Shown: positions 456-23,023 of the stretch, one piece after another | Numbering within the stretch: the stretch's first letter is position 1 | Layout: each line of letters starts with the position of its first letter | Origin: Escherichia phage sutha | DNA length: 64,000 bases | Sequence record: PV245934.1 | Strand: one strand, 5' to 3' | Notes under the pieces: generated by a model | The model's database searches: none | What the model was told of the DNA's origin: nothing | The model's input: the letters and a program-made list of their open reading frames with translations, nothing else | Translations under genes and position numbers: made by a program

Positions 456-737
456 TTAAATTGCCTTGAATTCTGATGTCTGTGATTCAAAACGAATATC
501 GCCTTTGATGACTAGCTCAGCATCAAGACCGAATACGACAATGATATGCGCAGAACCTGGATACAGCGTAATGGCAATAGAATCCACCTGGTCTGGAAGC
601 AAAGTATTCAATACATGAGTCACTTGAGCATGAATTCGAAGCTCAGCTGCATTATCAAACTTTTCAAACATATTATTAGCGATAATTTGGCTAAACACTA
701 CTTCTACGATTTTAGAATAAGTCGGAAACATATTCAC
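456..737 (-). CDS. hypothetical protein (93 aa)
   Basis: ORF track; packed in minus-strand early block upstream of pseT. Confidence 0.4.
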   Translation of the reverse strand: MNMFPTYSKIVEVVFSQIIANNMFEKFDNAAELRIHAQVTHVLNTLLPDQVDSIAITLYPGSAHIIVVFGLDAELVIKGDIRFESQTSEFKAI

Positions 738-926
738 CTCACATAATTTTCTTCAAGCCAATTAATAACATCCAACGCATTATCAAAAGTTGAACCATCT
801 ACTTTGTCTTCTGTTTCATAATCAAGAACATCTAAGCCTACTCTTCCATCAACAATAGGCCATAAACAAAATAGATATTTCTTTTCTTTTTCAATTTTAT
901 CACAAAGTCGATAAATCTTTTCTATG

Positions 927-934
<8 letters not shown>
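734..934 (-). CDS. hypothetical protein (66 aa)
   Basis: ORF track; 4-nt overlap with neighbours typical of T4 early operons. Confidence 0.4.
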
Positions 935-2349
<1,415 letters not shown>

Positions 2350-2873: not shown

Positions 2874-3223
2874 TTAGAAAGGTCCTGGATGTCTTCTGCG
2901 AACTTGTTGAAGGAGTTGTTGATTTGTTTTTCAACCAATCCTGGCTTATGAGCCACCACATCCGCCTTCTTTGCGTCTTTGCGCAGTTTTTCATTTTCAC
3001 GCTCAATAGCAGCAATTGCCTCACGATTTTTATTATTCATCGCATCAATATAATTATACTGAATTCGCAAATTATTTAATGCTAAAGCGTTTTCATTGGC
3101 CGTTTTTGTAATTTCTACAACAGACGTTTCTAATCTTTCAATTTTATTTTTTAAAATTAAAGAAGTTCCGCCCAATGCAATTACAATTAATAGCAAGCCT
3201 GCTGTCGTATTACTTAATTGCAT
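2870..3223 (-). CDS. i-spanin candidate (T4 pseT.3 position): N-terminal TM helix plus coiled-coil
   Basis: Hydrophobic N-terminus LLLIVIALGG followed by charged helical region; 4-nt overlap with lipoprotein gene. Confidence 0.6.
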   Translation of the reverse strand: MQLSNTTAGLLLIVIALGGTSLILKNKIERLETSVVEITKTANENALALNNLRIQYNYIDAMNNKNREAIAAIERENEKLRKDAKKADVVAHKPGLVEKQINNSFNKFAEDIQDLSK

Positions 3224-3720
3224 AAAGTTTTAATAACCTCTATAATATCGTCTTGAGAAAGACCGTTAATTAAAATATGATGTTCAGCCGGAGATTTAGA
3301 AATTTTAAAGCATGCCTCAACATCTTCTGCCATATCTGATGCGCTACGATTTGGATTACTAATTCCAAGACGATGTTTTCCCGTCAAAGGATTAACGATG
3401 ATATAGCATTTACAGTTGTTAATATGAACATTAGGTTGAGTCTGATTAATGAACACATCACAATCATATTTCGCAAGCTGATTTTCTAAAAAGACTTTCA
3501 TCTCCTCAACTGCATCAGGAAGCATATCACGGGCTTGCTCAAGACGACGATTTCGATATTCTTTAATGGTCGTTTTCCGCTTGACTTGCTTAGCTAAATC
3601 TTTCTTAAGATCGGTGATATATCCAACTCGACGATTTCCTTTAAATACAGAAATCCCATCTGTAGTATCACCGTATGCTTCAACGACCATTTCAGTAGTA
3701 ATAAGCTGTAAATCCATCAT
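3214..3720 (-). CDS. alc: Alc-like protein (167-168 aa) by position and size
   Basis: Lies between spanin pair and rnlA as in T4; length matches T4 Alc; sequence identity not verified from memory. Confidence 0.5.
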   Translation of the reverse strand: MMDLQLITTEMVVEAYGDTTDGISVFKGNRRVGYITDLKKDLAKQVKRKTTIKEYRNRRLEQARDMLPDAVEEMKVFLENQLAKYDCDVFINQTQPNVHINNCKCYIIVNPLTGKHRLGISNPNRSASDMAEDVEACFKISKSPAEHHILINGLSQDDIIEVIKTLCN

Positions 3721-3781
3721 AAAGTCCTCATGTTATGTCAGTAAGACTACTGTAACACAACACGAGGGACTTGTAAACAGC

Positions 3782-5369
<1,588 letters not shown>

Positions 5370-5396
5370 AATAAAATGGGCCTTGCGGCCCACTCC

Positions 5397-6566
5397 TTAA
5401 AAATATTTTTTAAAACTCATCATAACTTTATCATCAACATCATTATCAATCTGTGCTACAAGGTAAGATGACAGTTCTACTTCTTGTGGCGCGGATTGAA
5501 CATTATCAGAATTAAGATATTCACGAATCCAAGGATACGGATGTTTAACCGGAGCATCAGTAATTGGGCATGGAAGACCACACTGTTTCATACGAGATAC
5601 AGTTAAGTAATCAATAAAGCTCCACATGCTATTTGTATTTAATCCAGGAACATCGCCATCTTTAAATAAATGAACTGCCCAGTCTTTTTCTTGACGGTTA
5701 ACTTCCATGAAAATATCAACTGCTTCTTGTTCACACTCTTGGGCGATTTTAACCCATTCATCACCATCAGTGCCAAGTTGAAGTTGACGAATAATATATT
5801 GGGTGCCTTTAAGGTGAAGCTGCTCATCACGTGCAATGAACTTCATAATCTTGGCATTACCTTCCATAATTTCCATGTTCTTATGGAAGTTAAAGGTACA
5901 TGCGAAAGATACATAAAAACGAATAGCTTCCAATGCGTTGATTACATGAAGGCAAAGATAAAGAGATTTCATTAGTGCCCGTTTAGTATATTCAACAACT
6001 TTGCCTAGCTCTTCTTTACGAAATCCTTCTGATAAAATTCCTTCATAATCTTCAACCGCATTCTGATATTCACGAGTCTTAACTAGAACATCATCATAAT
6101 AGCGACCAATAGATTCAGCACGTTTCATGATAGCTTTATCTAATACAATCTCATCAAATACCTTTGATGGATCAGTATAAAGATTTCGCATAATATGAGT
6201 ATATGAACGGCTGTGAATAGTTTCGCTAAAAGTCCATGTAGCAACCCATGTATCAAGACTTGGGTCTGAAATTAACGACATAAGTACAGCAGACGGCGCA
6301 CGACCCTGAATGCTATCCAAAAGTGATTGATACTTCAGGTTATTAGTAAAAATATCTTGCTGATATTGAGGAAGCTTGTTAAATTGTGCAGCATCCATCA
6401 TTAAGTTTACTTCTTCAGGACGCCAGAAAAATGATAACTGCTTTTCGGTTAAATCTTCAAAAACTTTATGGCGTTGAATATCATAACGCGCAATACCAAG
6501 ACCTGAACCGAAGAACATAGGTTCTTTTAAAACATCAACTGGATTTGTATTAAAAACTGTGCTCAT
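5397..6566 (-). CDS. nrdB: ribonucleotide reductase small subunit, uninterrupted
   Basis: 389-aa contiguous ORF with di-iron radical protein features; no intron. Confidence 0.9.
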   Translation of the reverse strand: MSTVFNTNPVDVLKEPMFFGSGLGIARYDIQRHKVFEDLTEKQLSFFWRPEEVNLMMDAAQFNKLPQYQQDIFTNNLKYQSLLDSIQGRAPSAVLMSLISDPSLDTWVATWTFSETIHSRSYTHIMRNLYTDPSKVFDEIVLDKAIMKRAESIGRYYDDVLVKTREYQNAVEDYEGILSEGFRKEELGKVVEYTKRALMKSLYLCLHVINALEAIRFYVSFACTFNFHKNMEIMEGNAKIMKFIARDEQLHLKGTQYIIRQLQLGTDGDEWVKIAQECEQEAVDIFMEVNRQEKDWAVHLFKDGDVPGLNTNSMWSFIDYLTVSRMKQCGLPCPITDAPVKHPYPWIREYLNSDNVQSAPQEVELSSYLVAQIDNDVDDKVMMSFKKYF

Positions 6567-6617
6567 AAATTTTCCGCTTAGTTAATAGATAGTGACTCGT
6601 CCGTGAGTCAAATTATA

Positions 6618-8882
6618 TCATAATTTACAGGATGAACAATCTTCAGCTTTTGGAGTTTCTATTTCATAATCATCAGTACCAGAACCATCGCGGGTATTAT
6701 GATAATAGAAATTTTTTCCGCCAAAATACCAAAAATACAAAAGGTCATCAATCATTATTGACATTGGAACCTTTCCTTTTGGAAAAATCTGCGGGTCATA
6801 ATATGTATTTGCTGAAGCTGATTGACATACCCATTTAAGCATAATAGCTACCTGCGTAAGATAAGGTTTATTACCTTTCTTAGCTAATTTCCACGTATAA
6901 TCATAGAGGTCTATGTTATGCTCAATATTGGGCACGACTTGATTAAAGGAACCCTCTTTTGATTCTTTAACAGAGACTGGTCCACGTGGAGGCTCGATAC
7001 CGTTTGTACTGTTAGAAACTTGGGAAGATGACTCACATGGCATAAGTGCTGATAATGTGCTATTACGGATGCCAAAGAGCTTAAGGTCTTCCCGCAGCGA
7101 CGACCAGTCACAAACGTATTTTGGAGCTGCGATTTGGTCAATCTTTTTATTGTACCAGTCGATAGGTAATTCGCCTCGAGACCAACGAGTGTCTGAATAA
7201 TATTCGCAAGGTCCTTTTTCTTTGGCGAGCTTAATGGATGCTTTAATGAGTCCATACTGCAATCTCTCAAATAGTTCATGTGTTAAATCGTTAGCATCTT
7301 CATAAGAAGCAAAGTTACTTGCCAGCCAAGCTGCATAGTTAGTAACACCTACGCCAAGGTTTCGACGCTTTTTAGCTTTTTCTGCTTCAGGAACTGGATA
7401 TCCTTGGTAATCCAAAAGATTATCAAGAGCGCGAACTTGAACTTCTGCTAATTCATTAATTTTATCTTGGTCTTGCCAATCGAAGTTATCCAACACGAAT
7501 GCAGATAACGTACACAATCCAATTTCAGCATCAGGACTATTCACATCATTTGTTGGAATAGCAATTTCACAGCACAAGTTACTCTGACGAATAGGTGCCT
7601 TTTCACGAATAAATGGAGTATAGTTATTCGTATTATCAATGAACTGCACATAAATCCTTGCTGTTCCTGAGCGTTCAGTCATTAGCAATTCAAACAGTTC
7701 ACGTGCTTTAATACGCTTTTTACGAATATTAGGGTCTTTTTCTGCGGCTTCATATAATTCACGGAAACGGTCTTGGTCTTTAAAATAAGAATAATAAAGC
7801 TCGCCACTCATTTCATGCGGACTGAACAAAGTAATGTAGTCGTTCTTTCCAAAACGTTCCATCATCAAATCATTCAGCTGAACGCCATAATCCATATGAC
7901 GGATACGGTTTTCTTCTACGCCTTTGTTATTTTTCAAAACGAGAAGATTTTCAACTTCCAAATGCCAAATAGGATAATAAGCAGTAGCAGCGCCGCCACG
8001 AATTCCACCCTGTGAGCATGATTTAACAGCAGTCTGAAAATGTTTCCAAAAAGGAATAACACCAGTATGGCGTACTTCACCTGTACCAATCTTAGAACCT
8101 TCGGCACGAATCATACCAACGTTAATACCAATTCCAGCGCGTTTGGAGATATATTCAACAATTGAAGCGGAAACCTTATTGATAGACTTCAGCGAATCAC
8201 CTGCCTCAATAACAACACATGAACTAAACTGTCGAGTCGGAGTACGACAACCAGCCATAATAGGAGTTGGTAATGAAATTTGTCGAGTAGATACTGCTTC
8301 ATAAAAACGAATAACATGTTTTAATCTATCAACAGGTTCATCTTGATGTAATGCCATTCCAATAGTCATAAATGCAAACTGTGGAGTTTCATAAATTTGA
8401 CCAGTGGTTTTATCTTTAACGAGATATTTTTCTTTTAATTGCATCGCCCCGGAATAAGTAAATTCCATATCCCGCTCGTGCTTAATTTTTGATTCTAAAA
8501 ATGTAATTTCTTCTGCTGAATATTTTGACAGCAGTTCAGGGTCATATTTACCTTCATTTACACAGTAAGAAATATGGTCAATAAATGAACGTGGTTCATA
8601 TTGCCCATAAACATGCTTACGAAGAGCAAACATTAAACAGCGAGCGGCTACATATTGATAATCAGGCTCTTCAACTGAAATAGAATTCGCAGCAGCCTTA
8701 ATTACAATGGTTTGAATGTCATCAGTGGTCATTCCATCACGGAGATATGATTTAATATTTTCATATAATTCATAAGGATCTACAGATGTTCCTTCGGCTG
8801 CCCAAGATAAAACTTTAATAATTTTTTGTGGATCAAAGCTCTGAGAAACACCACTACTTTTGATAACATTAATTAATTGCAT
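6618..8882 (-). CDS. nrdA: ribonucleotide reductase large subunit
   Basis: MQLINVIKSSGVSQSFDPQKI... 754 aa from internal Met as in T4; ORF track extends 32 codons upstream. Confidence 0.9.
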   Translation of the reverse strand: MQLINVIKSSGVSQSFDPQKIIKVLSWAAEGTSVDPYELYENIKSYLRDGMTTDDIQTIVIKAAANSISVEEPDYQYVAARCLMFALRKHVYGQYEPRSFIDHISYCVNEGKYDPELLSKYSAEEITFLESKIKHERDMEFTYSGAMQLKEKYLVKDKTTGQIYETPQFAFMTIGMALHQDEPVDRLKHVIRFYEAVSTRQISLPTPIMAGCRTPTRQFSSCVVIEAGDSLKSINKVSASIVEYISKRAGIGINVGMIRAEGSKIGTGEVRHTGVIPFWKHFQTAVKSCSQGGIRGGAATAYYPIWHLEVENLLVLKNNKGVEENRIRHMDYGVQLNDLMMERFGKNDYITLFSPHEMSGELYYSYFKDQDRFRELYEAAEKDPNIRKKRIKARELFELLMTERSGTARIYVQFIDNTNNYTPFIREKAPIRQSNLCCEIAIPTNDVNSPDAEIGLCTLSAFVLDNFDWQDQDKINELAEVQVRALDNLLDYQGYPVPEAEKAKKRRNLGVGVTNYAAWLASNFASYEDANDLTHELFERLQYGLIKASIKLAKEKGPCEYYSDTRWSRGELPIDWYNKKIDQIAAPKYVCDWSSLREDLKLFGIRNSTLSALMPCESSSQVSNSTNGIEPPRGPVSVKESKEGSFNQVVPNIEHNIDLYDYTWKLAKKGNKPYLTQVAIMLKWVCQSASANTYYDPQIFPKGKVPMSIMIDDLLYFWYFGGKNFYYHNTRDGSGTDDYEIETPKAEDCSSCKL

Positions 8883-8907
8883 AAGTCCTCTGTAGTAAGT
8901 TACTCCA

Positions 8908-8915
8908 TATAAATA
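8908..8915 (+). promoter_or_regulatory. T4 late promoter box TATAAATA
   Basis: TATAAATA about 22 nt upstream of the plus-strand GIY-YIG ORF, followed by GGAG Shine-Dalgarno. Confidence 0.5.
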
Positions 8916-8937
8916 TAATTTTATATAGGAGAATATA

Positions 8938-9669
8938 ATGAAATCTGGAATATATGCTATTATAAACACTAAAACCAATAAGCACTATATAGGAAGTGCA
9001 ATTAATTTTGAAGAACGATGGAAACGACACTTCAAAGATTTAGATAATGGAAATCATCATTCAATAAAGCTGCAACGTTCTTATAATAAGCATGGGAAAG
9101 ATGCTTTCGTATGTAAAATCATAGAAGAACTTCCATACGAAAAATCTATCATTATTGAACGTGAAAATTATTGGATACATGAATATGACTCAAAGGAAAA
9201 TGGGTATAATATAGCAGACGCATCGTTTGGGGATACCTTATCTCATCACCCAAGAAAGCAAGAAATCCTTAATAAAATTTCAAATGCAATTAAAAATAAT
9301 AATTCAAAATTATCACCAGAAGAACTTAAGCAAAAACATGGTAGACCTAAAGATATTAAAGGTAAAACTATAGAAGAACACTATGGGTTAGATCGTGCTA
9401 TAGAAATAAGCAAAAAGTTCCAAGAAAGAAACGCTGCACTTAATATGAAAGGCATCAATAATCCATATTATGGACAGACACATACCAATGAAGTTAGAAA
9501 ACGAATTTCTGACTCACAAAGAGGTAAAAAGAAACCCCATCTAAGAGTAAGTATAGATGGGGTAGAATATCCAACAATAGCAGAAGCTGTGCGTCAAACC
9601 GGAATAAGCAGAAAACTTATATCTAAAAGATGTGCTCTAGATTGTTGGGAATCATATTTATACTGCTAA
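8938..9669 (+). CDS. free-standing GIY-YIG homing endonuclease (I-TevI-like catalytic domain)
   Basis: N-terminus [35 protein letters not shown]...[12 protein letters not shown] closely parallels I-TevI; opposite strand to flanking nrdA and td. Confidence 0.75.
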
Positions 9670-9903
9670 AGTTCTACATTCGTCATATTGTTTTTCCGTT
9701 AAAACAGTAATATCATAATAACAATCTGAAGAAGTTTTAACTGTAGAAATTTTATTATCAAAATACTCACGAGTCATTTTATGAGTATAATATTTTTTGC
9801 CATAAATGACAATAGGCTGTTCTGGTCCTGGAACTTCTAACTCGCTTGGATTAGGAAGTGTAAAAAGAACTACACCAGAAGTATCTTTAAATCGTAAAAT
9901 CAT
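9658..9903 (-). CDS. hypothetical protein (81 aa)
   Basis: ORF track; between the endonuclease and td. Confidence 0.4.
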
Positions 9904-9926
9904 ATATCCTCACAATTAATAATTAA

Positions 9927-11815
9927 TTACACCGCCATTTTTCCTTTAATAGAAGGGTGTGATTCGTAACCTTTAAGAACGAAATCTTTAGGCCTGAGTT
10001 TAAGAATGTATTCCAATTGTTCTTTAGTAGAAAGATAGCGGAATTTATAAGGCAATCCGCCTATTACCAGTTCACAAAGCTCTTTAGGTTCACGACGCAA
10101 AATTTCTTTACATTGTTCTACGTGATTCATATAGATATGAGTATTACCGCCAGAAAATATCAAATCTCCTGGAATAAGATTACACATCTTAGCTACAATA
10201 TGAACTAACGCAGCATATGATGCAATGTTGAACGGTAGCATTATGTTCAGATAAGGTCGTTAATCTTATCCCGGAATTATATCCAGCTGCATGTCACCAT
10301 GCAGAGCAGACTATATCTCCAACTTGTTAAAGCAAGTTGTCTATCGTTTCGAGTCACTTGACCCTACTCCCTAAAGGGATAGTCGTTAGGCATTTATGTA
10401 GAACCAATTCCACTTATCAGATTTTACACGGTAAGTAACTAATCCTGATGAAATTTCAAAATGTCTAGCCGCATCGGCTGCACATTCAAAAATAATCCCA
10501 TCGCATGAAATCTTTTTGATGTTAGCTGGCTTTTTGCCTTTCATCTTTTCAGATAGTTTAGTTTTAGTTTTTTCTGAATGTTTGTGATTAAAGAACGGGT
10601 TATTTTCACCTGAACGTTTTCGGCACTTTCCACAAGTATCGGCCGAAGATGGTATGCGAACACCGCATTTACAAAACTTGTGGTTTTCTGGATTCCATCG
10701 GCCATTTTTACTTCCGTGTTTACCATAAAGAGCTTTCCGACCATCAGGACCAAGCTTAAGCATCTTAGCTTTAACAGTTTCAGCTCGTTTCTTAGCAATT
10801 TCTTCTTTTAATGGATGATTTGAAAGCACATCGCCAAAAGACGCATCAGCAATATTATATCCATTAATTTTAGAATTTAGCTCTTTAATCCAAAAATTTT
10901 CTCGTTCAATAATCAAATCTTTCTCATATGGAATTTCTTCCAGTACAGAGCATTCAAAAACATTACCATGTTTATTAAAAGACCTTTGAAATTTTATAGA
11001 AGAGTGAACACCGTTTTCAAGGTCTTTAAAATGTCTCTTCCATCTTTTCTCAAAATCTTTAGCACTTCCAACATACACTTTACCGTTTAAAGTGTTTTTA
11101 ATCTGATAAATTCCGCTTTTCATAAACACCTCTTTTTATATAGAAGTATTTATTAAAGGGTAGTCCTACAATTTAGCACGGGATTGTCTACTAGAGAGGT
11201 TCCCCGTTTAGATAGATTACAAGTATAAGTCACCTTATACTCAGGCCTAAATTAACCTAAGAAAACATCGACACTGCGTTGGTACCATTGTAAATCCAAA
11301 TATCCATTACGCACATTAAACTGATAAAACATATGACAAGGTGGTAATGCCATTTGCTTAAGTTCTGCCGGATTCCATGCTGAAACAATTTGACGTCTAT
11401 CATTTGGCAGTTTTTTAATACGTTCAACAACTTCTATAATTTGATCTACACCACCAAAATCGCGCCACTGTTTTCCATAAATTGGACCAAGTTCACCGCT
11501 ATGGTATCCTAAATCTTTTGCTTGATTTTCGTAATTTTCATCCCAGACTGTTTTGCCTTGAATTAATGAATCATGTTGAATTAATCGCAAATCATTGACA
11601 TTTGTGCTTCCCGATAAAAACCATATTAGCTCAGCAATACAGGCTTTCCACGCTAATTTTTTAGTTGTTACCGCAGGAAAACCTTTAGTTAAATCCCAGC
11701 GTAATTTAGTACCAAACAAAGCAATTGTTCCTGTGCCTGTTCGGTCATCGGTTTCGTAACCATTTTCCAGGATATCTTTAATTAAAAATTGGTATTGTTT
11801 CATTAGTTCATCCAA
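9927..11815 (-). CDS. td: thymidylate synthase, interrupted by group I intron (exon 1 11255-11815, exon 2 9927-10239)
   Basis: Exon 1 ends ...QRSVDVFLG, exon 2 resumes LPFNIASYA...; intron boundaries match the T4 td intron architecture. Confidence 0.85.
10240..11254 (-). mobile_element. td group I self-splicing intron (about 1015 nt) with embedded homing endonuclease ORF
   Basis: Intron 5' sequence TAATTTAGGCCTGAGTATAAGGTGAC... and 3' end ...CATTATGTTCAGATAAGG...AATG as in the T4 td intron. Confidence 0.85.
10386..11123 (-). CDS. I-TevI: intron-encoded GIY-YIG homing endonuclease I-TevI
   Basis: [36 protein letters not shown]..., 245 aa, ends ...KWNWFYINA. Confidence 0.85.
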   Translation of the reverse strand: MKSGIYQIKNTLNGKVYVGSAKDFEKRWKRHFKDLENGVHSSIKFQRSFNKHGNVFECSVLEEIPYEKDLIIERENFWIKELNSKINGYNIADASFGDVLSNHPLKEEIAKKRAETVKAKMLKLGPDGRKALYGKHGSKNGRWNPENHKFCKCGVRIPSSADTCGKCRKRSGENNPFFNHKHSEKTKTKLSEKMKGKKPANIKKISCDGIIFECAADAARHFEISSGLVTYRVKSDKWNWFYINA

Positions 11816-12005
11816 GAATATGTAGAAGGATATTTGGCAAAGTTAGGTTTATATCCTAATTTAACCATTTGTTTTGCTTTGCGAGTAAATCCTAAAGAAC
11901 GCTCACCTTTAAGATACTGTTTTGGTGTCATAGGCCCTTGATGCATCTGCCGACAAATAAAAAGGGCCATAGCATTAGGAACATCCTTAACTTTTAATTT
12001 ATTGC

Positions 12006-12835
<830 letters not shown>

Positions 12836-17262: not shown

Positions 17263-17270
17263 TATAAATA
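17263..17270 (+). promoter_or_regulatory. T4 late promoter box TATAAATA for gene 34
   Basis: TATAAATA about 35 nt upstream of gene 34 ATG, divergent from the rnh early promoter. Confidence 0.6.
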
Positions 17271-17304: not shown

Positions 17305-20300
17305 ATGGCCGAGATTAAAAGAAAGTTCAGAGCAGAAGACGGTCTGGACGCAGGTGGCGATAAAATAATCAACGTAGCTTTAGCTGATCGTACCGTAGGA
17401 ACTGACGGTGTTAACGTTGATTACCTAATTCAAGAAAACACAGTTCAACAATACGATCCAACTCGTGGATATTTAAAAGATTTTGTAATCATTTATGATA
17501 ACCGCTTTTGGGCTGCTATAAATGATATTCCAAAACCGGCAGGAGCTTTTAATAGTGGACGCTGGAGAGCATTACGTACAGATGCTAACTGGATTACAGT
17601 CTCATCTGGTTCATATCAATTAAAATCTGGTGAAGCTATTTCGGTTAACACTGCAGCTGGTAATGATATTACATTTACTTTGCCATCTACCCCAATTGAT
17701 GGTGATACTATCGTTCTCCAAGACATTGGAGGAAAACCTGGGGTTAACCAAGTTTTAATTGCAGCTTCAGTACAAAGTATTGTAAACTTTAGAGGTGAAC
17801 AAGTACGTTCAGTACTAATGACTCATCCAAAGTCGCAGTTAGTTTTAATTTTTAGTAATCGTCTGTGGCAAATGTATGTAGCTGATTATAGTAGAGAAGC
17901 TGTAGTTGTAACACCAGCGAATACTTATCAAGCGCAATCCAACGATTTTATCGTACGTAGATTTACTTCTGCTGCACCAATTAATGTTAAACTTCCAAGA
18001 TTTGCTAATCATGGCGATATTATTAATTTCGTCGATTTAGATAAACTAAATCCGCTTTATCATACAATTGTTACTACATACGATGAAACGACTTCAATAC
18101 AAGAAGTTGGAACTCATTCCATTGAAGGCCGTACAACGATTGACGGTTTCTTGATGTTTGATGATAATGAGAAATTGTGGAGATTGTTTGACGGGGATAG
18201 TAAAGCGCGTTTACGCATTATAACGACTAATTCTAATATTCGTCCAAATGAAGAAGTTATGGTATTTGGTGCGAATAACGGAACAGCTCAGACAATTGAA
18301 CTTCAGCTTCCGACTGATATTTCTGTTGGTGATACTGTCAAAATTTCCATGAATTACATGCGAAAAGGACAAACAGTTAAAATCAAAGCTGCCGGTGAAG
18401 ATAAAATTGCTTCTTCAGTTCAATTGCTGCAATTCCCAAAACGTTCAGAATATCCGCCTGAAGCTGAATGGGTAACTGTTCAAGAATTAGTTTTTAACGG
18501 TGAAACTAATTATGTTCCAGTTTTACAACTTGCTTATATAGAAGATTCTGACGGAAAATACTGGGTTGTACAACAAAACGTTCCAACCGTAGAAAGAGTT
18601 GATTCTTTGAATGATTCTACTAGAGCAAGATTAGGCGTGATTGCTTTAGCTACACAAGCGCAAGCTAATGTCGATTTAGAAAATTCTCCACAAAAAGAAT
18701 TAGCAATTACTCCAGAAACATTAGCTAACCGTACTGCTACAGAAACTCGTAGAGGTATCGCAAGAATAGCAACTACTGCTCAAGTGAATCAGAACACTAC
18801 ATTCTCTTTTGCTGACGATATTATCATCACTCCTAAAAAGCTGAATGAAAGAACTGCTACAGAAACTCGCAGAGGTGTTGCTGAAATTGCGACACAGCAA
18901 GAAACTAATGCAGGTACTGATGATACTACAATCATCACTCCTAAAAAGCTTCAAGCTCGTCAAGGTTCTGAATCATTATCTGGTATCGTAACCTTTGTAT
19001 CTACCGCAGGAGCTACTCCAGCTTCTAGCCGTGAATTAAATGGTACAAATGTTTACAATAAAAACACTAATAATTTAGTCGTTTCGCCTAAAGCTCTGGA
19101 TCAGTATAAAGCTACTCCAACACAGCAAGGTGCAGTAATTTTAGCAGTTGAAAGTGAAGTAATTGCTGGACAAAGCCAAGAAGGATGGGCAAATGCGGTT
19201 GTAACACCAGAAACGTTACATAAAAAGACATCAACTGATGGAAGAATTGGTTTAATTGAAATTGCTACGCAAAGTGAAGTTAATACAGGAACTGATTATA
19301 CTCGTGCAGTCACTCCTAAAACTTTAAATGACCGTATAGCAACTGAAAGTTTAAGTGGTATAGCTGAAATTGCTGCACAAGTTGAATTCGACGCAGGCGT
19401 CGACGATACTCGTATCTCTACACCATTAAAAATTAAAACTAGATTTAATAGTACTGATCGTACTTCTGTTGTTGCTCTATCTGGATTAGTTGAATCAGGA
19501 ACTCTCTGGGACCATTATACCCTTAATATTCTTGAAGCAAATGAGACACAGCGTGGTACACTTCGTGTGGCTACACAAGTTGAAGCTGCTGCAGGAACAT
19601 TAGATAATGTTTTAATAACTCCTAAAAAGCTTTTAGGTACTAAATCTACTGAAGCACAGGAAGGTGTTATTAAAGTTGCAACTCAGTCTGAAACTGTGAC
19701 TGGAACGTCAGCAAATACTGCTGTATCTCCAAAAAATTTAAAATGGATTGTGCAGAGTGAACCTACTTGGGCAGCTACTACTGCGATAAGAGGCTTTGTT
19801 AAAACTTCATCTGGTTCAATTACATTCGTTGGTAATGATACAGTTGGTTCAACGCAGTCGTTAGAATTATACGAGAAAAATAGCTATGCAGTATCACCGT
19901 ATGAATTAAACCGTGTATTAGCAAATTATTTGCCATTAAAAGCAAAAGCTGCTGACGCAAATTTATTAGATGGCCTAGATTCATCTCAGTTCATTCGTAG
20001 GGACATTGCACAGACGGTTAATGGTTCACTAACCTTAACCCAACAAACGAATCTGAGTGCCCCTCTTGTATCATCTAGTACTGCTACGTTTGGTGGTTCA
20101 GTTTCGGTAAATAGTACATTAACTATTTCTAATACTGGAACGGCAACTCGTCTGATTTTTGAAAAAGGACCTCAAACTGGAACTAACCCAGCACAGACAA
20201 TGAGCATCCGTGTATGGGGTAACCAGTATGGTGGCGGTTCAGATACAACACGTTCTACCGTATTTGAAGTTGGTGATGAAACGTCTAATCACTTTTATTC

Positions 20301-22329: not shown

Positions 22330-22337
22330 TATAAATA
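22330..22337 (+). promoter_or_regulatory. T4 late promoter box TATAAATA for gene 36
   Basis: TATAAATA about 24 nt upstream of gene 36 ATG. Confidence 0.55.
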
Positions 22338-22360: not shown

Positions 22361-23023
22361 ATGGCTGATTTAAAAGTAGGTTCAACAACTGGAGGCTCTG
22401 TCATTTGGCATCAAGGAAATTTTCCATTGAATCCAGCCGGTGACGATGTACTCTATAAATCATTTAAAATATATTCAGAATATAATAAACCACAAGCTGC
22501 AGATAACGATTTCGTTTCTAAAGCTAATGGTGGTACTTATGCCGCGACTGTTCGATTTAATGGAGGAGTACATGTTCCTACTATAGGTAGTAGTCAACAG
22601 TGCGGCGTTTATCCAGGCAACGGTGATGCAGCTACTTTTGCTATGGCAAATATTGACATCGTTTCATGGAATGGTATTGGTTTTAAATCATCACAAGGTT
22701 CAGCAGACCGAACTGTTGTAATTAATGCACGTAATGGTGATATTAGTACAAAAGGCGTCGTGACAGCAGTAGGTCAAATAAGAAGTAATGCAGTTTCTCC
22801 TGTATCAGCAAATGACCTTACTAGAAAGGACTATGTTGATGGAGCAATAAATACTGTTACGGCAAATGCGAACTCTAGAGTGTTACGATCTGGTGACACT
22901 ATGACGGGTAACTTAACCGCACCAAACTTTTTCTCGCAGAATCCTGCATCTCAACCTTCACACGTTCCACGATTTGACCAAATCGTAATTAAGGATTCTG
23001 TTCAAGATTTCGGCTATTATTAA
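22361..23023 (+). CDS. 36: long tail fibre distal connector gp36
   Basis: 220 aa, [23 protein letters not shown]... Confidence 0.85.

Follow-up and report, generated by a model that had tools for sequence, protein, structure and literature searches.

A free-standing I-TevI-like GIY-YIG endonuclease gene in place of nrdA.1 between nrdA and td of Escherichia phage sutha

In Escherichia phage sutha (sequence record PV245934.1), of which we analysed a stretch of 64,000 nucleotides, here called the window, a 243-residue open reading frame (ORF) lies on the plus strand between the minus-strand genes nrdA and td. What is a lone gene doing on the opposite strand of this block, and how did it get there? 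The ORF most probably encodes an active homing endonuclease of the GIY-YIG kind, free-standing and related to I-TevI but without the zinc finger; judging from sequence comparisons, we put the probability of this reading at about 0.78. The gene family keeps one slot in every lineage examined, namely in three named T4-like genera and six metagenomic contigs, and sequence divergence indicates that the cassette carrying the gene crossed recently between phages of Klebsiella (Jiaodavirus) and phages of E. coli (Tequatrovirus). An earlier note on this DNA, made from the letters alone, had proposed an extra free-standing, seg-type mobile endonuclease at this position. That proposal is borne out by the sporadic occurrence of the gene, its sharp boundaries, intact catalytic residues, purifying selection and transfer across genera. 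The cassette, its left edge and the gene are as follows.

8891..9678, plus strand: mobile cassette of 788 bp, consisting of 47 nt with promoter and Shine-Dalgarno sequence (SD), the ORF, and 9 nt.
8879..8890, minus strand: left junction, formed by the start codon of nrdA with its ribosome-binding site (minus-strand sequence GAGGACTTATGC).
8938..9669, plus strand: endonuclease ORF with an ATG start, 243 aa plus stop codon.

The ORF is present between nrdA and td as the earlier note described it; the start given there, 8883, is the first base past nrdA. Its product has the same sequence as ULA51776.1 of phage RPN226 (100% identity), and since it matches the GIY-YIG family (Pfam PF01541, 1.1e-15) and the I-TevI catalytic-domain structure 1MK0 (phmmer, 4e-40), it is not a chance reading frame. 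It is also, as claimed, the only plus-strand gene in the 17-kb minus-strand block: the remaining plus-strand ORFs from 1 to 17.2 kb (75 aa or longer) all overlap longer minus-strand ORFs over the whole or most of their length, and one of them (3566..3994) straddles the junction of two. GenBank records already label the gene 'GIY-YIG nuclease family protein', 'homing endonuclease', 'endonuclease I-TevI' or 'hypothetical protein'. Three parts can be distinguished in the protein.

8938..9231, plus strand: GIY-YIG catalytic domain (aa 1-98), with Y6, Y17, R27, H31, H40, E76 and N91.
9232..9447, plus strand: linker (aa 99-170), its N-terminal part conserved with I-TevI; predicted helices replace the four-Cys zinc finger.
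9448..9666, plus strand: NUMOD3 helix and C-terminal helix-turn-helix DNA-binding module (aa 171-243), recognised by Pfam, phmmer and Foldseek.

Residues 1-98 share 69% identity with the I-TevI catalytic-domain structures 1MK0 and 1LN0, on which Foldseek superposes this domain with TM scores of 0.88-0.90 at the same identity. BLASTP aligns the whole protein with the I-TevI encoded in the window at 45% identity over 242 aa with three gaps (E 3e-70), so the N-terminal parallel to I-TevI that had been noticed is real. Among 31 aligned homologues Y17, G19, R27, H31, H40, E76 and N91 are invariant, and G4-I5-Y6 is at least 90% conserved; E76 and N91 are the equivalents of I-TevI E75 and N90. With these residues conserved to this degree, the protein has the full GIY-YIG catalytic set, including the arginine and glutamate (R27 and E76) on whose retention the earlier note had let its proposal hinge.

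The DNA-binding part had been called different from that of I-TevI. This is right in so far as the identity is only ~30% and the zinc finger is missing, but the NUMOD3 helix and the helix-turn-helix are there as in I-TevI. NUMOD3 is found by Pfam at 2e-6, over the gathering score, and the family I-TevI_DNA-bd at 2.3e-4, under it. The I-TevI DNA-binding domain structure 1I3J matches residues 156-239 in phmmer (2.8e-7) and the C-terminal part in Foldseek (E 5e-4, 30% identity). An AlphaFold2 model (mean pLDDT 82) places helices at 107-123, 127-134 and 145-167 in the linker and at 184-194, 214-221 and 225-234 in the DNA-binding module. The Pfam zinc-finger family PF22635, which matches the resident I-TevI at 1.8e-17, has no match in the window endonuclease, and there is no Cys residue in the aligned stretch. 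The C-terminus is the same kind of module as in I-TevI, strongly diverged and minus the zinc finger. In T4 (AF158101.6) the protein has a single match at E<=1e-5, at one place, which is I-TevI; it is therefore closer to I-TevI than to any Seg protein. As the zinc finger and the intron residence of I-TevI proper are both lacking, we class it as a free-standing I-TevI-like GIY-YIG endonuclease.

How the two endonucleases are related is best seen by domain. The catalytic domain is 55-84% identical between any two members of the family, free-standing or intronic. The linker of the window endonuclease is 38-50% identical to that of free-standing homologues versus 26-29% to that of I-TevI, and the DNA-binding domain is 45-55% identical among enterobacterial-type free-standing members and ~29-30% to I-TevI. 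At the nucleotide level the first 300 nt of the window endonuclease gene and the resident I-TevI gene are 67% identical, with no identical run longer than 11 nt, which excludes a recent duplication of, or gene conversion from, the resident gene. The suggestion that the gene was derived from I-TevI by domain shuffling, taken as a local or recent event, finds no support, given the same figures and given that the whole cassette is common to Klebsiella phages and the linker type to homologues at the same locus elsewhere. The window endonuclease and the resident I-TevI are old relatives, the former having come as a complete cassette; modules may have been exchanged within the family in the distant past.

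Comparison of carrier and non-carrier genomes delimits what the cassette brought and what it displaced. The sequence shared by both alleles ends at GCATAAGTCCTC, the start codon and ribosome-binding site of nrdA, and resumes at TTCGTCATATTG. From one to the other there are 788 bp in 8/8 carrier Tequatroviruses and 301 bp in 7/7 non-carriers, and the cassette stands in place of this 301-bp segment, which holds nrdA.1, a dispensable gene for a DUF4326 protein, and the last codons of nrdA.2. T4 has the order nrdA, nrdA.1 (108 aa), nrdA.2 (87 aa) and td, all on the minus strand, and no endonuclease gene; the earlier note had stated correctly that T4 lacks an endonuclease at this site. A review table of 2010 likewise gives none for the nrdA-td site of T4 (PMC2988022). 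The part of the cassette common to Jiaodavirus is 8891-9670, and the left-junction sequence adjoins it in the Tequatrovirus copies and in most of those from Jiaodavirus. Jiaodavirus carriers have ~780 bp at the locus, with the endonuclease gene between nrdA and an intronless td and overlapping the td 3' end, versus 494 bp in non-carriers, which have an NrdA.1-like gene and a 68-aa ORF. The Jiaodavirus phages KP179 (~3208..3455 of its locus) and PKO111 have ~250 extra bp between nrdA and the cassette, so that its left neighbour is not always the nrdA ribosome-binding site. The extra sequence holds an unannotated 76-aa minus-strand ORF (MNKDITAVRGL...) that has no Pfam match and is unlike NrdA.1.

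The non-coding part of the cassette, 47 nt 5' and 9 nt 3' of the ORF, leaves no room for a ribozyme. A scan of 8000-12500 against Rfam (E<=0.1, permissive filters) gave no match, and since it likewise missed the known td intron it says nothing about ribozymes; the case against an intron rests on the scant non-coding sequence. The td intron (10239..11254) probably escaped Rfam because its 738-nt ORF interrupts the ribozyme model, so that an empty Rfam scan carries little weight for introns that hold an ORF.

Within its genera the gene is sporadic. Queries with the flanks recover it in 8/534 matching records for the window (mostly Tequatrovirus), 18/154 for KP182 (mostly Jiaodavirus) and 4/14 Acinetobacter-phage records for AbTZA1, which makes it anything but a universally conserved gene of this locus, the finding that the earlier note had named as fatal to its proposal. 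In a tblastn search of 50,697 phage records, protein identities of at least 80% occur in 26, namely 8 of Tequatrovirus and 18 of Klebsiella phages, and the next match is at 51%. A scan of IMG/VR with the endonuclease protein gave no match, nor did a scan of JGI metagenomes for the left end of the cassette.

The place of the gene is constant. Acinetobacter phage AbTZA1 (subfamily Twarogvirinae) has a 51%-identical homologue antisense between nrdA and td; its closest non-carrier relative, with flanks 99.6% identical, has in that slot a 109-aa protein 62% identical to T4 NrdA.1. Six metagenomic phage contigs have 51-78%-identical homologues in the antisense nrdA-td slot, with nrdA.1 missing. At all 21 loci compared (the window and 7 further Tequatrovirus, 6 Jiaodavirus, AbTZA1 and the 6 contigs) the gene has the antisense orientation, lies upstream of the nrdA start and is not accompanied by nrdA.1. 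In all three named genera nrdA.1 or its homologue is displaced. The spacer between the gene and nrdA is 52-82 nt at 19 of the 21 loci, the exceptions being KP179 and PKO111, and the td 3' end abuts the gene in every lineage except Tequatrovirus and AbTZA1, where a small ORF lies between.

Transfer between genera can be read from identity along the locus. In 100-bp bins the window and Jiaodavirus are 82-98% identical over the cassette, except in the last bin, which spans the right junction, and mostly 60-80% over nrdA, nrdB and td, with sharp edges at ~8890 and 9670. The endonuclease proteins of the window and KP182 are 91% identical; over their N-terminal 250 residues the two NrdA proteins are only 73% identical. 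An endonuclease better conserved than its essential neighbour NrdA argues for horizontal transfer. Neighbour-joining trees place the eight Tequatrovirus copies, tightly clustered, inside the more diverse Jiaodavirus copies. Synonymous divergence does not exceed 0.08 among the Tequatrovirus copies and rises to 0.67 among those of Jiaodavirus. Trees and divergence together fit one fairly recent entry from a Jiaodavirus-like donor. Carrier flanks are mosaic in Tequatrovirus and Jiaodavirus, without a carrier haplotype, so the cassette has recombined into varied backgrounds.

The gene is kept functional. The frame of 243 codons is complete in all 14 copies examined, and dN/dS stays at 0.04-0.16 even where dS is 0.3-0.67, which indicates purifying selection on the endonuclease. 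These figures count against an inactive relic that is passively carried and heading for decay, as do the invariant or nearly invariant catalytic residues and the conserved promoter and SD. Many phage homing endonuclease genes are reportedly defunct, T4 I-TevIII for example, which gives that view some precedent; here we consider it very improbable.

Selection of this strength would also be seen if the nuclease had been domesticated, that is, repurposed and kept for a benefit to the phage, for instance to degrade or exclude co-infecting relatives or as a DNA-binding regulator, and no longer homed. I-TevI represses its own promoter. The absence of a decayed copy among the 14, the tenure of one locus across lineages down to 51% identity, and a persistence longer than the classic cycle of invasion and decay predicts all fit this account. 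Against it, the gene is sporadic within each genus, its carrier flanks are mosaic and it has crossed genera recently, as ongoing mobility predicts, and a beneficial, fixed gene should be common, yet only 1.5% of the matching records have it. We regard domestication as unlikely and retain the active homing endonuclease as the preferred reading.

Expression of such a gene in this orientation calls for signals of its own, and the late-promoter-like sequence and SD ascribed to it are both in place.

8908-8915, plus strand: T4-type late-promoter-like TATAAATA, a sequence match with a putative promoter role.
8927-8931, plus strand: Shine-Dalgarno AGGAG, 6 nt before the ATG and conserved in Jiaodavirus copies.

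In 7/7 lineages checked, including homologues only ~51-56% identical, TATAAATA precedes the start codon by 28-36 nt; the SD is conserved in these lineages as well. It is not enriched in the window (8 seen versus 9.3 expected), so its meaning rests on position and conservation; other plus-strand sites are at 17263, before an ORF at 17305, and at 22330, before an ORF at 22361. As the gene is antisense to the nrd/td unit, read-through expression is impossible, and the gene would have to rely on its own signal. Low or late expression is a theme among T4-type endonuclease genes (PMC2988022). A second TATAAATA lies on the minus strand at 9655..9662, inside the last endonuclease codons (YLY) and directed at nrdA, and the DNA under it, TATTTATAC, is conserved in Jiaodavirus copies. 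It could be a late promoter for antisense RNA over the endonuclease gene and for late transcription of nrdA, or a by-product of coding.

Where would the enzyme cut? A homing endonuclease that spares its own genome should leave a difference between carriers and non-carriers at its target. We searched for carrier-linked polymorphisms in Tequatrovirus (8 carriers versus 7 non-carriers) and Jiaodavirus (6 versus 5) and found no fixed base difference in 1.3 kb of nrdA or in the right flank (0.57 kb in Tequatrovirus and 1 kb, all of td, in Jiaodavirus); no co-conversion haplotype emerged. If its own genome is spared, the discriminating sequence therefore lies in the replaced segment or over a junction. 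Long blocks of nrdA.1 are conserved at the nucleotide level between Tequatrovirus and Jiaodavirus, the longest of ~24 nt (ATCTTTACCGACGTAATTTCCCCA), and as nrdA.1 is replaced in three genera, this gene or its junction with nrdA is the best target candidate. We chose neither ATCTTTACCGACGTAATTTCCCCA nor the left junction as the exact target, since nothing tells them apart. With a DNA-binding module ~30% identical to that of I-TevI, the target is presumably unlike that of I-TevI. What sets the cleavage-motif preference of I-TevI is its first helix together with the loop after it, positions 30, 33 and 36-39 among them (PMC12774661). Residues 24-39 of the window endonuclease differ from I-TevI at 26, 36, 37 and 39 only, and with this region almost unchanged a CNNNG-like cleavage motif is a reasonable guess.

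The neighbouring td gene suggests another target. The enzyme might have an I-TevI-like specificity for td, cutting intronless td near the intron site and cooperating with the td intron (collaborative homing). Of all relatives of the td-intron endonucleases it is the closest, its gene abuts the td 3' end in the lineages named above, a td-intron endonuclease co-occurs with it in the window and in L019 (metagenomic) and L033, and some carriers have divergent patches in the td 3' region. The carriers include phages with the td intron and I-TevI (the window, RPN226 and LH2), with an ORF-less intron (N2) and with an intronless td (ECO07P5, Ozark and all Jiaodavirus), and, as no base in the 1 kb of Jiaodavirus td is specific to carriers, an enzyme directed at td would cut its own genome. 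The DNA-binding module, as noted, is far from that of I-TevI. The replaced segment does not significantly resemble the I-TevI td homing site, for 218/300 and 88/300 shuffled sequences score as well; an 8-mer, CGTCATAT, at the right junction lies outside the known I-TevI binding region and was dismissed as chance. The intronless carriers and the unlike replaced segment make td an unlikely target, and we consider collaborative homing with the td intron improbable. The td patches themselves lie in the region beside the cassette and are strongly divergent in Nispero and PKO111 (~40-130 bp in), LH2 and Ozark (exon 2); Nispero and PKO111 show a 15-bp length difference there, and the patch in Nispero has no counterpart in the loci against which it was compared. 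Apart from some differences in T4, such patches are absent from the sampled non-carriers. The numbers are small, and the patches may be traces of co-conversion from unknown donors.

If the gene encodes an active homing endonuclease directed at the nrdA.1 region, its spread could proceed as follows. Late in a mixed infection the enzyme would use its C-terminal NUMOD3 helix and helix-turn-helix to bind a long site, and the I-TevI-like catalytic domain would cut at a distance, probably at a CNNNG-like motif, in a genome without the gene. The discriminating sequence would lie inside the replaced segment (nrdA.1 or the nrdA.2 3' end) or span a junction. Once the break is repaired with a carrier genome as template, the cassette would stand in place of nrdA.1. 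The antisense orientation would make the gene depend on its own late promoter and thereby limit expression.

Several points weigh against this reading. The AbTZA1 homologue has a different DNA-binding module, 29% identical, so one common target for all lineages is unlikely and the exact target site probably differs between lineages. The target could also lie beyond the 1.3 kb examined on the nrdA side and the 0.6-1 kb on the td side, or both alleles could be cut. The trees are neighbour-joining trees without support values. Nucleotide diversity (pi) is 0.010 in the cassette and ~0.04 in the flanks, but this alone is no proof of a selective sweep, because the nrdA.1 segment of non-carriers is equally uniform (0.012). 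In the literature we found no paper that describes or tests the gene.

A wider picture can be drawn, if tentatively. The genes at nrdA-td might form a locus-faithful lineage of free-standing I-TevI relatives, found in two subfamilies of Straboviridae, and in every T4-like lineage compared, that homes on the DUF4326 gene nrdA.1, deletes it on invasion and still crosses genera and hosts, most recently from Klebsiella to E. coli phages, and that is a sister, possibly the ancestor, of the td-intron endonucleases. We hold this extended scenario to be possible but rather doubtful. Were it true, one window would hold a natural 'before and after' pair for the passage of a free-standing endonuclease gene to intron residence.

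Among known systems, I-TevI of the T4 td intron (1MK0, 1LN0, 1I3J) is collinear with the window endonuclease over its full length. The two are alike in the start of the linker, the NUMOD3 helix, the C-terminal helix-turn-helix and a late-promoter-type signal; they differ in that I-TevI is intron-encoded and has the zinc finger, whereas the window endonuclease is free-standing, antisense and lacks it. The zinc finger of I-TevI is its distance determinant. The T-even free-standing endonucleases SegA-SegG and SegH/Hef, known for 'intronless homing', resemble the present case in that a GIY-YIG gene lies between conserved genes, is sporadic among close relatives and excludes the gene that otherwise fills its place: nrdA.1 in the present case, mobC in that of segH and mobE in that of hef. 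The window endonuclease is none of the named T4 seg genes, however, and its sequence is much closer to I-TevI. It lies on the strand opposite to its neighbours, while several T4 free-standing endonuclease ORFs overlap the upstream ORF (PMC2988022). I-BmoI of the Bacillus mojavensis thyA intron is similar by description, an I-TevI relative with NUMOD3-type helices and a helix-turn-helix and no zinc finger (compare the schematic in PMC12774661), but is intron-encoded and targets thymidylate synthase. F-CphI, beside psbA in cyanophage S-PM2 and an example of collaborative homing, is also a free-standing gene adjoining one that bears a group I intron in some relatives; the likeness is positional only, and in the present case the evidence speaks against td, the adjoining gene, as the target.

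What is new is an uncharacterised and, judging by its residues and selection, apparently active addition to the best-studied group of GIY-YIG homing endonucleases, at a locus in the T4-like nucleotide-metabolism cluster, a classic hotspot for such elements. The cluster also hosts mobE, I-TevIII and I-TevI (PMC2988022). As a natural variant of I-TevI with a nuclease domain 69% identical, no zinc finger and another DNA-binding module, the enzyme is relevant to I-TevI-based genome-editing nucleases and bears on what fixes the distance to the cut when the zinc finger is missing. The cassette and nrdA.1 form a clean presence/absence system in cultured close relatives, suited to work on homing and marker exclusion, and the cassette is an example of an endonuclease passing between phages of different host genera. 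No concept is changed; the points of note are the fidelity to one locus, the exclusivity with nrdA.1 and the recent passage between Klebsiella and E. coli phages.

The neighbours of the cassette in the window are the following.

6618..8882, minus strand: nrdA (ribonucleotide reductase), the left neighbour, uninterrupted in the window, with its ATG at 8880-8882.
9658..9903, minus strand: nrdA.2 homologue (DUF5496), 81 aa versus 87 aa in T4.
10386..11123, minus strand: I-TevI in the td intron, given for context.
Minus strand: td, with exon 2 at ~9927-10238, intron at ~10239-11254 and exon 1 at ~11255-11803 (ends read from the sequence).

The 3' end of the endonuclease ORF and the convergent nrdA.2 homologue share 12 bp, an overlap that the earlier note had rightly pointed out. 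The right end of the cassette recodes the C-terminus of the nrdA.2 homologue, which matches DUF5496 in Pfam at 4e-53 and covers profile positions 1-76 of 87.

Other sites of the cluster vary as well. Directly downstream of nrdB, a 144-aa minus-strand ORF (4959..5393) has a weak GIY-YIG match (Pfam 5.4e-6); its position and size suggest denA, the gene of T4 endonuclease II, a GIY-YIG enzyme, in which case it would be one of the ordinary genes and no further mobile endonuclease. In the close relatives 236Ecol005PP and RPN226 an HNH endonuclease gene (594..1304 of each locus) splits nrdA into two ORFs, and the metagenomic L019 has the same arrangement. A similar genes-in-pieces reductase has reportedly been described for Aeromonas phage Aeh1. 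In the window nrdB (5397..6617) is a single 389-aa ORF without an intron, and as it is uninterrupted and only 51 bp from nrdA, the window lacks T4's mobE and I-TevIII intron here; at the nrdA-nrdB junction other relatives have mobE-like, Hef-like or NUMOD-containing genes. Between frd and td, which overlap directly in T4, the window has a 68-aa minus-strand ORF (11803..12009), and relatives have hypothetical genes of 69 aa (LH2) or ~115 aa, so that the frd-td interval looks like another small variable slot of the cluster.

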